From Leucoraja ocellata (Eukaryota), in the NCBI GenBank assembly GCA_036785375.1, contig JAWMAR010001695.1:1-64000 (forward strand): a stretch of 64,000 nt of DNA. The letters are read 5' to 3'. The notes beneath the pieces are model-generated. The model saw only the letters and a program-made list of their open reading frames with translations. It did not search any database and had not been told where the DNA came from. This document shows positions 24,020 through 37,015 of this stretch, piece after piece (position 1 is the first letter of the stretch; the number at the start of each line of letters is the position of its first letter). Position numbers and translations under genes: made by a program.

Positions 24020-24660
24020 AGGTCACTGAAAGTAAGCATGCAGGTACAGCAGACAGTGAAGACAGCTAATGGCATGTTGACCATCATAACAAGAGGAGTT
24101 GAGTATAGGAGCAAAGAGGTCCTTCTGCAGCTGTACAGGGTCCAGGTGAGACCACACCTGCATTATTGTGCACAGTTTTGGTCTTGCATAGGTTCACAAG
24201 GTTAATTCCTGGGATGGCGGGACTGTCATATGTTGAAAGAATGGAACGACTGGGCTTGTATACACTGGAATTTAGAAGGATGAGAGGGGATCTTATTAAA
24301 ACATGTAAGATTATTAAGGGATTGGACACGCTACAGGCAGGAAACATGTTCCCAATGTTGGGGAGGTCCAGAACCAGGCGCCACAGTTTAAGAATATGGG
24401 GTAGGCCATTTAGAATGGAGATGAGGAGAAACGTTTTCACCCAGAGAGTTGTAAATCTGTGGAATATTCTGCCTCAGAAGGCAGTGGAGCCCGATTCTCT
24501 GGAAGTTTTCAGATAGAGCTCTTAAAGATAGCAGAGTCAAAGGATATGGGGAAAAGGCAGGAACGGGGTACTGATTGTGGATGATCAGCCATGATCACAG
24601 TGAATGGCGGTGCTGGCTCGAAGGGCCGAATGGCCTACTCCTGCACCTATTGTCCATTGT
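24020..24660 (+). mobile_element. CR1 ORF2 C-terminal fragment with tail
   Basis: SLKVSMQVQQTVKTANGML...LYRVQVRPHLHYCAQFWS; FTRLIPGMAGLSY... Confidence 0.9.
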
Positions 24661-27095: not shown

Positions 27096-27666
27096 CATTG
27101 TTCATCTTAGTCTGGTTGGATGAATTGGGCTGAAGGTCCTTTTCCGTGCTGTATGACTCCGTTACTAAGAGTGGGGACAAGAGTGGCCTTGCTACAGTTA
27201 TGCTCACTGTAAGGGAATGGCTTTACATTGTTCAAAGACAGTTGCAAATGATCAGTGGCATGCCATATACATATGCTATATACATATGATATATATGCCA
27301 TGTCACAAATCCATGATATTGTGCATACTGCAAATACTGCACTCTTTTTAACTTCTAATTGAAGGGGATGCCAAGTGTGAAATTAATATTAGACTTAACA
27401 GGAATCAAATCAGTTTTTGATTTTAAACATGGTTTTGAAATGGGTCATAATTTTCTTGAACTAAGAAGAGAAAATGCTGGAAATACTGCGCGCATCAGGA
27501 CGCATCTCTGGAAAAAGAACACGTTTTGTTTCCAAGATCCTTAGTTAGAACGGGGAAAGAGAGAAACCTTGATCATTATCAATAGAAGAAAAGAATGGAA
27601 GCGTCAAAGGGAATATTTGCAATTGGGTGAGACCAGATGAGTTAATGTGAGAGTAAGTACTCATGT

Positions 27667-28283
27667 TTGAGTAAGGGTGGGGGAGACAGCCTACCTGGGG
27701 GCAGCGACAGTGGCTGGGCCTCTGGCACAAAGACCGGTCCTGTTGCTCAGAAGGGTAAGGAAAAGAAGAGGAGAGCAATTGTAATAGGGGACTCTATAGT
27801 TAGGGGGTCGGATAGGCGATTCTGTGAACGCAGACAGGAGACCCGGATGGTAGTTTGCCTCCCTGGTGCCAGGGTCAGGGATGTGTCTGAACGTGTCCAA
27901 GAAATCCTGAAATGGGAGGGAGAGGAGCCTGAGGTTGTGGTGCATATAGGTACCAACAACATAGGTAAAAAAAAAGAGAAGAGGTCCTGAAAGAAGAATT
28001 TAGGGAGTTAGGTAGAGAGTTAAGGAGAAGGACTGCAAAGGTAACAATCTCAGGATTACTGCCTGTGCCACGCGACAGTGAGAGTAGGAATGGAGTGAGG
28101 TGGAGGATAAATGAATGGATGAGGGACTGGTGCAGTGGGTGTGGATTCAAGTTTCTGGATCATTGGGACCTCTTTTGAGGAAGGTGCGACCTGTACAGAA
28201 AGGACGGGTTGCACTTGAACTCGAGGGGGACCAATATCCTGGCGGGGAGATTTGCAAAGGCTACTGGGGAGACTTTAAACTAG
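27667..28283 (+). pseudogene. CR1 ORF1, SGNH/GDSL esterase domain
   Basis: VIGDSIVRG, CLPGARV, HIGTNN and DGLH blocks; frameshift in the A-run at 27967-27975 and TGG>TGA stop at ~28177; ends ETLN*. Confidence 0.9.
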
Positions 28284-31228
28284 TATGGTTGGGGGGAGGG
28301 ACTCGAATTGGGAAAGCTAGCAGTCAGTGTGTGAGGCAGGAGGCAGAGAATGGTAGCACTCTGACCCGAAATGTAGGGGAGAGAGAAGAAAAAGACAATA
28401 AACAGAGAATAAGAGAGGGTGGGTTTCTTAAATGTGTATATTTTAATGCTAGGAGCATTGTAAGAAAGGCGGATGAACTTAGAGCCTGGATTGACACCTG
28501 GAAGTATGATGCTGTGGCGATCAGTGAAACATGGTTGCAGGAGGGCTGTGATTGGAAACTAAATATTCCAGGATTTTGTTGCTTCAGGTGTGATAGAATT
28601 GGAAGGGCAAGAGGTGGAGGTGTTGCATTGCTTATCAGGGAAGATATTACAGCAGTGCTTTGGCAGGATAGATTAGAGGGCTCTTATAGGGAGGCTATTT
28701 GGGTGGAACTGAGAAATGGGAAAGGGGTAGCAACACTTATAGGGGTGTATTATAGACCGCCAAATGGGGAGCGAGAATTGGAAGAGCAAATATGTAAGGA
28801 GATTGCAGATATTAGTAGTAAGCACAAGGTAGTGATTGTGGGTGATTTCAATTTTCCACACATAGACTGGGAAACACATTCTGTAAATGGGCTGGATGGG
28901 TTGGAGTTTGTAAAATGTGTGCAGGATAGTTTTTTGCAGCAATACATAGAAGTACCTACTAGAGAAGGGGCGGTGCTGGACCTCCTGTTAGGAAATGAGA
29001 CGGGTCAGGTGGCAGAGGTATGCGTTGGGGAATAGTTCGGGACCAGTGATCACAATACCATTAGTTTCAATATAATTATGGAGAGGGTCAGAACTGGACC
29101 TAGGGTTGAGATTTTTGATTGGAGAAAGGCTAACTTTGAGGAGATGCGAAAGGGTTTAAAAGGAGTAAATTGGGACAGTTTGTTTTATGGGAAAGACGTG
29201 GAAGAGAAATGGAGGACATTTAAAGATGAAATTTTAAGAGTACAGAATCTTTATGTCCCTGTTCGGTTGAAAGGAAATAGTAAAAATTGGAAGAGCCATG
29301 GTTTTCAAGGGAAATTGGACACTTGGTTCGAAAAAAGAGAGAGATCTACAATAATTATAGGCAGCATGGAGTAAATGAGGTGCTTGAGGAGTATAAAGAA
29401 TGTAAAAAGAATCTTAAGAAAGAAATTAGAAAAGCTAAAAGAAGATATGAGGTTGCTTTTGCATGTAAGGTGAAAGTAAATCCAAATGGTTTCTACAGTT
29501 ATATTAATAGCAAAAGGATAACGAGGGATAGAATTGGTCCATTAGAGAGTCAGAGTGGACAGCTATCTGCACAGCCAAAAGAAATGGGGAAGATATTGAA
29601 CAATTTCTTTTCTTCGGTATTCACCAAGGAGAAGGATATTGAATTATGTGAGGTAAGGGAAACAAGTAGAGTAGCTATGGAAACTATGAGATTCAAAGAA
29701 GAGGAAGTACTGACACTTTTGAGAAATATAAAAGTGGATAAGTCTCCAGGTCCAGACAGGATATTCCCTAGGACATTGAGGGAAGTTAGTGTAGAAATAG
29801 CAGGGGCTATGACAGAAATATTTCAAATGTCATTAGAAACGGGAATAGTACCGGAGGATTGCCGTTATGCGCATGTTGTTCCATTGTTTAAAAAGGGGTC
29901 TAAGAGTAAACCTAGCAATTATAGACCTGTTAGTTTGACATCAGTGGTGGGCAAATTAATGGAAAGGATACTTAGAGATAATATATATAAGCATCTGGAT
30001 AAACAGGGTCTGATTAGGAACAGTCAACATGGATTTGTGCCTGGAAGGTCATGTTTGACTAATCTTCTTGAATTTTTTGAAGAGGTTACTCGGGAAATTG
30101 ATGAGGGTAAAGCAGTGGATGTTGTATATATGGACTTCAGTAAGGCCTTTGACAAGGTTCCTCACGGAAGGTTGGTTAAGAAGGTTCAATGGTTGGGTAT
30201 TAATGGTGTAGTAGCAAGATGGATTCAACAGTGGCTGAATGGGAGATGCCAGAGAGTAATGGTGGATGGTTGTTTGTCAGGTTGGAGGCCAGTGACTAGT
30301 GGGGTGCCACAGGGATCTGTGTTGGGTCCATTGTTTGTCATGTACATCAATGATCTGGATGATGGTGTGGTAAATTGGATTAGTAAGTATGCAGATGATA
30401 CTAAGATAGGTGGGGTTGTGGATAATGAAGTGGATTTTCAATGTCTACAGAGAGATTTATGCCAGTTGGAAGAGTGGGCTGAAAGATGGCAGATGGAGTT
30501 TAATGCTGATAAGTGTGAGATGCTACATCTTGGCAGTACAAATCAAAATAGGATGTACATGGTAAATGGTAGGGAATTGAAGAATGCAGGTGAACGGAGG
30601 GATCTTGGAATAACTGTGCACAGTTCCCTGAAAGTGGAATCTCATGTAGATAGGGTGGTAAAGAAAGCTTTTAGTGTGCTGGCCTTTATAAATCAGAGCA
30701 TTGAGTATAGAAGTTGGGATGTAATGTTAAAATTGTACAAGGCATTGGTGAGGCCAATTCTGGAGTATGGTGTACAATTTTGGTCGCCTAATTATAGGAA
30801 GGATGTCAACAAAATAGAGAGAGTACAGAGGAGATTTATTAGAATGTTGCCTGGGTTTCAGCAACTAAGTTACAGAGAAAGGTGGAACAAGTTAGGGCAT
30901 TTCTTTGGAGCACAGAAGGTTAAGGGGGGACTTGATAGAGGTCTTTCAAATGATGAGAGGGATAGACAGAGTTGACGTGGATAAGCTTTTCCCACTGAGA
31001 GTAGGGAAGATTCAAACAAGGGGACATGACTTCAGAATGAAGGGACAGAAGTTTAGGGGTAACATGAGGGGGAACTTCTTTACTGAGAGAGTGGTGGCTG
31101 TGTGGAATGAGCTTCCAGTGAAGGTGGTGGAGGCAGGTTCGTTTTTATCATTTAAAAATAAATTGGATAGTTATATGGACGGGAAAGGAATGGAGGGTTA
31201 TGGTCTGAGCGCAGGTATATGGGACTAG
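28280..31228 (+). pseudogene. CR1 ORF2: AP endonuclease plus reverse transcriptase
   Basis: YFNARS, ISETWL, YYRPP, GDFNFP, SDHN; KSPGPD, NYRPVSLTS, QHGF, DFSKAFD, GVPQGSVLGP, YADD; stop at 29033 and frameshifts at ~29285 and ~30900. Confidence 0.95.
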
Positions 31229-31499
31229 GGGAGAATACGTGTTCGGCACAGATTAGAAGGGTCGAGATGGCCTGTTTCTGTGCTGTAATTGTTATATGGT
31301 TATATGGTTATGATCCTACTTGTTTATGTGTATTAAGATGTAGCATTGACATGTTTAGAAGGCCATGTCTAGAAGGCCAGTGTGATATACAACATATATA
31401 TCATGCATATATATCTATGCAACATATGCAGGGTTTTATTTTTGATTTTCTGATTAAAAAACAAAAATCAAAGTTAGAGACACAAGAGACTGCAGATAA

Positions 31500-32029: not shown

Positions 32030-32407
32030 TAGAAACGTAGAAACTAGGTGCAGGAGTAGGCCATTCGGCCCTTCGAGCCTTTCAATATGATCATGGCTGA
32101 TCATCCAACTCAGTATCCCGTACCTGCCTTCTCTCCATACCCCCTGATCCCCTTGGCCACAAGGGCCACATCTAACTCCCTCTTAAATATAGCCAATGAA
32201 CTGGCCTCAACTACCCTCTGTGGCAGAGAGTTCCAGAGATTCACCACTCTCTGTGTGAAAAAAGTTCTTCTCATCTCGGTTTTAAAGGATTTCCCCCTTA
32301 TCCTTAAGCTGTGACCCCTTGTCCTGGACTTCCCTAACATCGGGAACAATCTTCCTGCATCTAGCCTGTCCAGCCCCTTAAGAATTTTGTAAGTTTCTAT
32401 AAGATAA
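32030..32407 (-). mobile_element. Young CR1 3' fragment (near-identical to 3730-4040)
   Basis: LIETYKILKGLDRLDAGRLFPMLGKSRTRGHSLRIRGKSFKTEMRRTFFTQRVVNLW. Confidence 0.9.
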
Positions 32408-32914
32408 GAATAATGATCAACGTGTTCAAACGTAGGTGTTTTGGTTACAATTACAAAGAGTATTGTGGGAAATTTGTGTCTGCGTGTTATTGTGAAAAGA
32501 CTACAGGTTACTTTCAATAGATGGATTAACATGGCTACATGCCTGAGACTTCCTCCCATACAGACCCATTGAGTGCCATTTGCACTGAGAAAGACAGGCG
32601 ATGGGACCACCAACAAAAGAAGGCATTTTCCCTGGGGAAGTAAATGGGTGAAACCAGACATTAGTCTCCAGATAAACAGGAAATGCATTCAGTAAGAGAT
32701 TTTGAGGAATCTTCAGTGAAAAGAAATTGGATTACCAAGTGATTTGCCTCACTCCTCTCTATTTGTGACGTGCCTCTTGTCTCTTTGCAACAACTCCTCT
32801 GATCCTCGCAATTCCTTGCTTTCATTGATTGATTGCTTGATTGAAAGCTACAGCAGGGAAACAGCCCCTTCAGGCCACTGATTCCACGCCACCTATCCAC
32901 CCGAGTTCTGTGGG

Positions 32915-35984: not shown

Positions 35985-37015
35985 CATGTATGCACTACTC
36001 CAGGTGTGGTCTCACCAAGACCCTGTACAATTGCAGTAGAACCTCCCTGCTCCTATACTCAAATCCTTTTGCTATGAATGCTAACATACCATTCGCTTTC
36101 TTTACTGCCTGCTGCACCTGCATGCCTACTTTCAATGACTGGTGTACCATGACACCCAGGTCCCGTTGCATCTCCCCTTTTCTTAATTAGCCATCATGCA
36201 GGATAGAAACAGGGCCTCTTATCATTGTGTCGTCTGTGCTGCCTATCTATGCTAAGCCCATAGCCTGCATTAGGCCCATTTTCCAGGTTTTTATAACTAC
36301 CCATTTTTTCTATCTAACGCCTTCTAAATGATGAAACATTATCCACCTCTACCACCTTCTCTGACAACTCCATCCAGCCAACCACTCCCCACATATGAAC
36401 ATTTTACCACTCAGATTGCCTTTGCAATTCTCTCCTATTGCCTTAAACTTATGACTCTAGTAGTAAACTCCCTTGTCATTGGAAGGGGACTCTGACTATC
36501 TATCCTATCTATGCCCTTCATAATCTTATAAACCTCCAGACCGTTCCCCATTGAGTTCCCTGCATTCCATTGAGAATAAACCCACCCCATCCAAACTCTC
36601 CTTATAACTAAGATAGGCACAAGGTGCTGGAGTAACTCAGCAGGTCAGGCAGCATCTCTGAACATAAAAGATGGGTGACATTTCGGATCGGGACTCTAAT
36701 TCAGACTGAAGAAGAGTCCTGACCCGAAACGTCACCTATCCTTTTTCTCCAGAGTTGCTGCCCGACCCGCTGAGTTACTCCAGTGCCTTGTGCCTATCTT
36801 TGGTATAAACCGGCATCTGCTGTTCCTTGTTTCCACATTCCGTCCTTATAACTACAGCCCTTGGCTTCAAACCAGGCAACCTCCTGGCCAATCTCTTCTG
36901 CTCCCTCTATCTATTTCAGCCACACTCTTCAATGGTGCAGCAACCAGAACTGTACACGATACGCCAAAAGCAGTCCGACCGATGTCTTATACAGTTGCAA
37001 TATGATATCTCAGCT
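35985..37015 (-). mobile_element. CR1 fragments (two ages) with a PLE palindrome at 36611-36842
   Basis: QAVKKANGMLAFIAKGFEYRSREVLLQLYRVLVRPHLE on minus strand; PLE has 12-bp TSD tccttataacta at 36599-36610 and 36843-36854. Confidence 0.8.

Follow-up and report, generated by a model that had tools for sequence, protein, structure and literature searches.

Introduction

The element considered here is a CR1-type long interspersed element (LINE) in a 64,000-nucleotide stretch of Leucoraja ocellata DNA (contig JAWMAR010001695.1, positions 1 to 64,000; hereafter the window). Birds, reptiles and other vertebrates have CR1 as their main LINE, and the bird LINEs of the esterase type are CR1. Among the closest described systems, CR1 subgroup 7 (type IVB esterase in open reading frame 1, ORF1) and L2 subgroup 9 with ZfL2-1 have in common an esterase ORF1 and an ORF2 encoding APE (apurinic/apyrimidinic endonuclease) and a reverse transcriptase (RT), according to the available text of PMC4120745 and PMC3905857 and to PDB 4c1b. 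L1 and SART1 resemble CR1 in having a bicistronic RNA whose ORF2 depends on translation of ORF1; they reinitiate, however, and make a separate ORF2 protein (ORF2p), L1 across a 63-nt spacer and SART1 at an overlapping stop-start (available text of PMC5972666). From few elements, L1 and SART1, reinitiation is generalised to LINE ORF2 in the accessible parts of two reviews (PMC2881922, PMC5972666). The Dictyostelium elements TRE5-A and TRE3-A are likewise two-ORF, APE-type elements without long terminal repeats, and their ORF2 is stated to need a −1 frameshift; the text available of PMC5911963 gives neither a slippery site nor a stimulator for them. They differ from CR1 in being amoebal and tRNA-targeted with another ORF1, whereas CR1 keeps a defined heptamer-stop-G motif across animal lineages.

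Simian retrovirus 1 (SRV-1) slips on G_GGA_AAC, and in Rous sarcoma virus (RSV) the stop directly follows the slippery site. In viral −1 programmed ribosomal frameshifting (coronavirus U_UUA_AAC, arterivirus G_UUA_AAC, retroviral gag-pol), X_XXY_YYZ heptamers with the consensus also seen in CR1 give access to a polymerase in a set proportion, and GUU is tolerated at the first three positions in equine arteritis virus (PMC3542737, accessible part). CR1 differs from these systems in having a linear G-run about 10 nt downstream and no conserved hairpin at 5-9 nt, and in being a host-genome LINE. [quoted passage not shown] That motif is C-rich and bound by nsp1beta/PCBP, whereas the CR1 motif is G-rich, and the likeness would be one of analogy only.

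Our literature searches found no description of a slippery site or frameshift in CR1; Kajikawa 1997, Kapitonov and Jurka 2003 and Kojima 2005 lay outside their coverage, and these three may quite possibly contain an early remark on frameshifting. CR1 is not mentioned in the searched text of a frameshifting review (PMC5009743). The word frameshift is absent from the available text of PMC3905857, PMC2734521 and PMC4120745 (its supplement text included), and refers to mutations only in that of PMC1925062 and PMC4255032. Here we describe a −1 frameshift signature in CR1-type LINEs which, judged from sequence, is real, deeply conserved and covarying. The ORF1/ORF2 junction is probably a programmed −1 ribosomal frameshift signal that would give a fusion of the ORF1 protein (ORF1p) and ORF2p in active elements.

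The ORF1/ORF2 junction in the window

The features of the junction are the following:

28274..28280, + strand: slippery heptamer T_TTA_AAC, predicted −1 shift site (from phase, conservation and covariation)
28281..28283, + strand: ORF1 stop TAG adjoining the heptamer (from codon reading)
28285..28287, + strand: ATG 1 nt past the stop, out of the ORF2 frame (11-codon ORF), which cannot start ORF2
28115..28117, + strand: ATG in the ORF2 frame within ORF1, private to the window copy and not a family start codon

ORF1 ends with the codons ACT (28272), TTA, AAC and TAG (28281-83), placing TTTAAAC at 28274-28280, immediately ahead of the stop and in the X_XXY_YYZ phase of the upstream ORF. The frame of ORF2 is −1, and it is open across the site from the heptamer onward (codons from 28274: TTT AAA CTA GTA TGG, that is FKLVW); this frame continues without a Met for 253 codons, up to a TAG at 29033-35. 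A G-rich tract starts at 28287, 6 nt past the heptamer. These observations, on which the sequence-only reading had built its proposal of a frameshift, were all confirmed; the out-of-frame ATG at 28285-87 had escaped it. A canonical heptamer precedes 12 of the 2976 stop triplets on the + strand of the window (0.4%), which is the chance level, and TTTAAAC followed by a stop recurs on this strand at 10194 and 46555, both outside LINE ORF hits.

Both ORFs of the window copy are broken and the copy is dead; the frameshift question therefore concerns the family and not the copy, and the signal is a property of the family. Variation in the family was followed by mapping contigs from 4 of 24 sequencing runs (four organisms; 2,998-8,715 contigs mapped per run) to positions 27900-28700. 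Position 28115 reads G in 95-99% of the family depth in all four runs; the ATG there is thus private to the window copy and was rejected as the ORF2 start. A family-conserved ATG at 28115, named by the sequence-only reading as a finding that would speak against a frameshift, is consequently missing from the family. A divergent subfamily, seen as a loose end at 28255, reads GGT TTA AAC TAG; the codon before TTA has changed from Thr to Gly and its final T is kept.

Conservation and covariation of the heptamer

A scan of metagenome contigs gave 51 loci; the end of ORF1 was unreached in 18, the contig ended first in 5 and the stop was readable in 28. A heptamer stood directly before the stop in 10 loci found without use of the motif (T_TTA_AAC in 7, G_GGA_AAC in 2, G_TTA_AAC in 1), the last of these matching the GUU form of equine arteritis virus (PMC3542737, available part). 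Four damaged copies (L004, L009, L043 and L049) were located through the motif itself and are to that extent biased; with them the heptamer loci number 14 (10 T_TTA_AAC, 3 G_GGA_AAC and 1 G_TTA_AAC). The stop adjoins the heptamer in 12 of these, and the other two read TAC TAG and AAG. The remaining readable loci include 9 of L2 type, 3 which we read as bacterial-like, and 3 exceptions (L015, L035 and L039).

Wherever ORF2 is intact in the heptamer loci it lies in the −1 frame, which is open for 438-835 codons in L001, L008, L010, L018 and L020. The same phased junction is present in lineages whose RTs are 42-47% identical to that of the window. The codons at the site are always AAC with TTA or GGA, and, calculated from the codon usage of the element concerned, the joint probability of exactly this codon pair is 0.3-1.7% for the TTA form and 0.6-6% for the GGA form. 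The free synonymous variation which the sequence-only reading had asked to be looked for was therefore not seen across these distant lineages; outside the three exceptions the phased junction changes only among slippery forms. Moreover, the first base of the heptamer swaps jointly with the codon (T_TTA to G_GGA). Such a joint swap is the mark of tRNA re-pairing and is predicted by neither a protein constraint nor a restart signal. In 8 of 15 junctions a stop shuts the −1 frame 1-3 codons upstream of the heptamer, which pins any shift to the heptamer.

In a negative control set drawn from a genome contig scan, which yielded 16 bacterial esterases only, a canonical heptamer was found at 1 of 13 bacterial esterase ends (L064). 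No ORF1 relatives were found in viral contigs or in plasmids. The N-termini of long ORF2 proteins were also compared (55 proteins, of which 10 were excluded for lack of an APE motif): the −1 junction pattern, [FGKVP]KL then G, occurred in 1 of 45 versus 2.3 expected, in a set whose predictions mostly start downstream and belong to other CR1 lineages; it lent the frameshift no support.

Start codons and the ORF2-frame linker

The main alternative to frameshifting is termination-reinitiation as in SART1 or L1: the ribosome would stop at the TAG, restart at an adjacent AUG or near-cognate codon, and produce a separate ORF2p. Reinitiation is shown for SART1 and proposed for L1, the AUG being dispensable and the downstream sequence important (available text of PMC5972666, PMC2881922 and PMC5009743), and an in-frame ATG lies 2 nt past the stop in 4 of the 14 junctions, with a GTG in two more. 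Within 18 nt of the stop, however, 4 junctions have an ATG in the ORF2 frame, 2 have one in the ORF1 frame, 2 (the window junction included) have one in the third frame and 6 have none, so that a start codon beside the stop is not conserved in the ORF2 frame. The codon at the would-be restart place is variable (ATG, GTG, TCG, TGG, AAG, GCG, GAA or TCC), and the closest ATG in the window family is not in frame. The sequence-only statement that ORF2 has no Met through the APE domain holds for the window copy (253 codons) but not as a generality, given the four junctions with an in-frame ATG.

28274..28426, + strand: ORF2-frame linker of 51 codons from heptamer to endonuclease, without stop and without Met (from stop counts)

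Over 28274..28426 there is no stop in the −1 frame and there are 4 in each of the other two. Where the first Met is far off or missing, the linker has 0 stops in 323 codons (7 junctions, each counted up to the first Met, the APE or the end of the locus), versus 8.8% per codon in the other frames. These 323 stop-free codons exclude a start at the first ATG; they are still compatible with a non-AUG restart at the stop, since a restart near the stop likewise keeps the linker open. What reinitiation leaves unexplained is the phased X_XXA_AAC, the fixed codons and the matched T/G swap, and we consider it unlikely, although both reinitiation and frameshifting may coexist in the bird-like clade.

C-terminal ends of ORF1 relatives

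The frameshift reading was compared with the protein record. A profile search returned 5,768 esterases, of which the best 150 were taken together with earlier hits and cluster members. Of the resulting 171 proteins, 131 showed the catalytic motif close to their end and 122 a tail of 20-45 residues; 65 were left after removal of similar tails. Asn is the last residue in 35 of these 65 non-redundant tails (23 LN, 7 GN, 1 KN and 4 other), and it is preceded by L, G or K in 31 of the 35 (background 0.28, p = 1e-13). Since L, G, K (and P) are the residues given by XXA codons, this pattern fits a slippery X_XXA_AAC. None of the 23 LN ends has before it a residue barred from a T-ending codon (M, W, Q, K, E; background 0.15, p = 0.02), and in the redundant set the rule is broken in 1 of 63. 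All 7 GN ends read QGN, where the preceding codon must end in G. Tail length ranges between 25 and 39 residues without loss of the LN terminus, whose carriers include Pelodiscus, Chrysemys, Varanus, Zootoca and the eel Synaphobranchus.

The motif might alternatively be kept for a reason other than translation: a Leu-Asn constraint at the C-terminus, or a signal in DNA or RNA, for instance an acceptor for splicing or an internal start that yields an RNA of ORF2 alone. A C-terminal Asn is indeed very common among the relatives, and TAG-G resembles an acceptor in several loci. A protein constraint, however, would fix neither the synonymous codons nor the last base of the preceding codon, and Gly or Lys takes the place of Leu in some relatives. 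None of the 13 proteins of the L2-type esterase clade has an LN or GN end, which shows that the esterase fold does not need it. As to splicing, a pyrimidine tract is absent, L049 ends in TGA, and no splice joint at the junction was among the 15 listed of 23, from runs not recorded as RNA. Altogether we hold these explanations to be very improbable. Lastly, that the heptamer and the −1 relation arose by mutations after insertion in a decayed copy can practically be dismissed: there are several breaks private to the window copy, a canonical heptamer precedes 0.4% of stop triplets and the bacterial L064 shows one, but conservation of the phased junction in lineages with RTs of 42-47% identity and in the divergent subfamily (28255, GGT TTA AAC TAG) refutes it.

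Several proteins deserve separate mention. P0103 and P0127 end in KN, from which A_AAA_AAC is predicted (amino acids only), and a Holothuria ORF1 protein ends in SN. The tails of seven ORF1 proteins carry F[FL]Q or FF (P0083, P0106, P0155, P0146, P0092, P0099 and P0131), and six ORF2 N-termini carry [GE]FF (P0266, P0271, P0283, P0285, P0286 and P0295); at the amino acid level these suggest that other CR1 lineages may have U-rich slippery sites. A UniRef entry under Proteus mirabilis, P0006, is a CR1-like ORF1 relative whose end reads into the ORF2-frame FKLIWQGDG, and is probably a contaminant. An esterase ORF1 is found in the sea cucumber protein P0154 and in lineages L001 and L008 with a CR1-type RT, far from the vertebrate clade; the available text of PMC4120745 restricts it to vertebrate CR1/L2 subgroups.

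The downstream G motif

28291..28300, + strand: conserved G motif G6-A-GGG, 10 nt past the heptamer, candidate stimulator (G-run in 13 of 13 junctions)
28310..28312, + strand: last GGG of the proposed quadruplex, not conserved (absent there in most lineages)

A run of 4-6 G starts 7-12 nt past the heptamer in all 13 junctions with enough sequence (background 1-11%), at exactly 10 nt in 9 of them, and a second GGG follows within 1-4 nt of the first run in 11. The sequence-only reading had taken the G-rich tract for a four-tract G-quadruplex (G4) as the stimulator. This part did not stand: the first G-run and usually the second GGG are kept, so that two tracts are conserved and not four at 6-8 nt, and the GGG at 28310..28312 is absent in most lineages and from one variant of the family itself. 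The four-tract G4 was accordingly rejected as the conserved stimulator. The best ViennaRNA fold contains a quadruplex in 3 of 12 junctions. On UUUAAAC a G4 drives up to 7% frameshifting with a spacer of 6-8 nt, and less with fewer quartets (PMC3919603, available part). In its spacing the CR1 motif comes nearer to the C-rich, protein-bound one that lies 11 nt past the PRRSV nsp2 site (PMC7939443).

No Rfam match was found at the junction. A long-range partner for the G motif is not conserved either; the best duplexes lie in ordinary C-rich coding stretches at −430 (window, L020), at −650 to −690 (L009, L010, L018), or far downstream. In the window, the motif at 28291-28300 is complementary to the CLPG-coding segment 27852-27862, about 430 nt upstream, and likewise in L020 and not in five other loci. 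As a candidate only, and weakly inferred, the stimulator would be a linear G motif about 10 nt downstream, either protein-bound or forming a two-tier quadruplex. Slow decoding of the adjacent stop perhaps helps slippage.

The proposed −1 frameshift and evidence against it

In the proposed frameshift, ribosomes translating ORF1 would reach T_TTA_AAC; most would terminate at the stop and release ORF1p, while a minority would slip back by one base at the heptamer, as the tRNAs for Leu (or Gly) and for Asn re-pair in tandem, and continue into ORF2. The product would be a Gag-Pol-like fusion of esterase, flexible linker, APE and RT, made at a fixed low ratio. Of the fusion-by-frameshift proposal as first formulated, the −1 relation and the heptamer persist in distant lineages, whereas the four-tract G4 and the general absence of an ORF2 ATG had to be given up.

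Support for this reading is at the sequence level, and a number of observations weigh against it. Most T_TTA_AAC loci are related bird-like elements; quick trees of the esterase and of the RT give about 4 deep independent lineages, not 14. The in-frame ATGs 2 nt past the stop are those of L009, L010, L011 and L018, all bird-like, and L001 has an in-frame ATG 3 codons before the heptamer. No variant at 28274-28283 was among the 40 listed of 97, which does not prove that the heptamer is invariant within the family. Thirty of the 65 tails do not end in Asn; among them are those of the L2-type clade, of broken copies and of some CR1-like lineages that have other ends. Regarding the stimulator, the G-run starts 9-12 nt downstream in 12 of 13 junctions, farther than the 5-9 nt of a usual spacer and the 6-8 nt optimal for a G4, and no conserved or unusually stable local hairpin was found at 5-9 nt in comparison with shuffled sequences (12 junctions, z −1.2 to +2.1; window −0.4), in a folding model of hairpins. 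Among the exceptions, L015 has a CR1-type RT and an intact ORF2 in the +1 frame with no heptamer, and L035 and L039 have neither heptamer nor ORF2 hit. In L012 and L027, C_CCA_AAC precedes the stop, yet the −1 frame is closed after 7 codons; a heptamer with a stop alone thus proves nothing.

In L015 (about 850-1150) ORF2 begins before the ORF1 stop and its first Met comes 195 codons in; the locus has either a different recoding mode or a damaged junction.

L2-type junctions

UGA followed by C is a leaky stop context. The L2-type loci are recognised by the esterase motif DG[LI]HP, which the solved ZfL2-1 protein shares; TGA-C closes ORF1 in 7 of 8 of them, and L006 and L007 read TGA CTA G there. 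These loci differ from CR1 in that ORF2 is in frame 0 and not −1: it continues in the frame of ORF1 and reaches the APE after 64-102 open codons, a stretch that lacks a Met in four loci.

ORF1 ends of the L2-type TGA-C loci: L005, about 1817; L006, about 1080; L007, about 1315; L012, about 1260; L027; L038; L046

The TGA-C junctions point to L2-type elements as candidates for stop-codon readthrough, and suggest a general tendency among esterase LINEs to fuse ORF1 with ORF2. On the widest view, esterase-ORF1 LINEs across animals would make their RT as a Gag-Pol-like fusion by recoding, CR1 through an ancient −1 cassette (X_XXA_AAC, stop, G-run at about +10 nt) with a new structure-free G-motif stimulator, and the L2 sister branch through UGA-C readthrough; we regard this as possible, somewhat short of an even chance. 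Such a split between CR1 and L2, if true, mirrors that between frameshifting and readthrough among retroviruses.

Should the −1 frameshift be real in active elements, the CR1 RT would arrive fused to ORF1p, consistent with the proposed particle-like role of the esterase; the ORF1p:ORF2p ratio would be fixed, and both the annotation of CR1 ORF2 and the design of retrotransposition assays would change. CR1 would also be exposed to host anti-frameshifting factors. To our knowledge, few conserved genome-encoded −1 sites are known in vertebrates; a very old one would be added, with a stimulator unlike a pseudoknot.

The element copy and other features of the window

The copy is made up of an esterase ORF1, an APE-RT ORF2 and 3′ 8-bp repeats:

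27649..31311 (approximate), + strand: 5′-truncated, decayed CR1-type LINE copy (from ORF1 homology, domain hits and the 3′ repeat)
27649..27966, + strand: first piece of the ORF1 remnant, linker and N-terminal half of the SGNH esterase (tblastn, 43-73% identity; profile hit)
27969..28283, + strand: C-terminal esterase half of the ORF1 remnant, ending ...GETLN* (ORF1 profile), with a premature TGA at 28176-28178
28427..29035, + strand: ORF2 APE endonuclease (PF03372, E 8e-15; PF14529, E 1e-9), with a premature TAG at 29033-29035
29036-29374, 29284-30975 (with the RT) and 30896-31228, + strand: remaining ORF2 in three pieces (PF00078, E 1e-31)
31291..31311, + strand: 3′ terminal 8-bp tandem repeat, GTTATATG x2.6 (from repeat search)

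Homology to ORF1 begins at about 27649 (tblastn of ORF1 relatives), and the frame of ORF1 is broken near 27967, in an A-run. The best solved match of the ORF1 profile is PDB 4c1b, a LINE ORF1 esterase (E 4e-45). A CxxC-x12-16-CxxC pattern is present in several ORF1 relatives; the 5′ end of the window copy is missing. The Pfam APE match covers residues 57-243 of the ORF2 frame, the RT domain lies within 29284-30972, and ORF2 is further damaged by frame breaks near 29300 and near 30900. No direct repeats of at least 7 nt flanking the copy were found at its ends.

Short 8-bp tandem repeats without poly(A) characterise CR1 3′ ends, and the window copy has such an end, besides an SGNH esterase in ORF1 and an ORF2 in the order APE then RT, as in the CR1 clade. 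Its RT is 43-45% identical to many stork (Mycteria) RT proteins. A quick RT tree, from which curated CR1 references are absent, places it together with the stork RTs and the bird-like loci at an SH-aLRT of 89, with the L2-type L005 at a distance. The element's sequence resembles the CR1 of cartilaginous fishes. A 3′ fragment of the same family lies at 6163-6640 (91.6% identity), and this second copy ends at 6620-6642 with the same 8-bp unit, GTTATATG. Fragments from the 3′ ends of other CR1-type families are found at 3353-3700, 24023-24261, 35998-36186 (− strand) and 32110-32688 (− strand), and an interstitial telomere-like repeat, (GGGTTA) x8.8, occupies positions 11055-11107.

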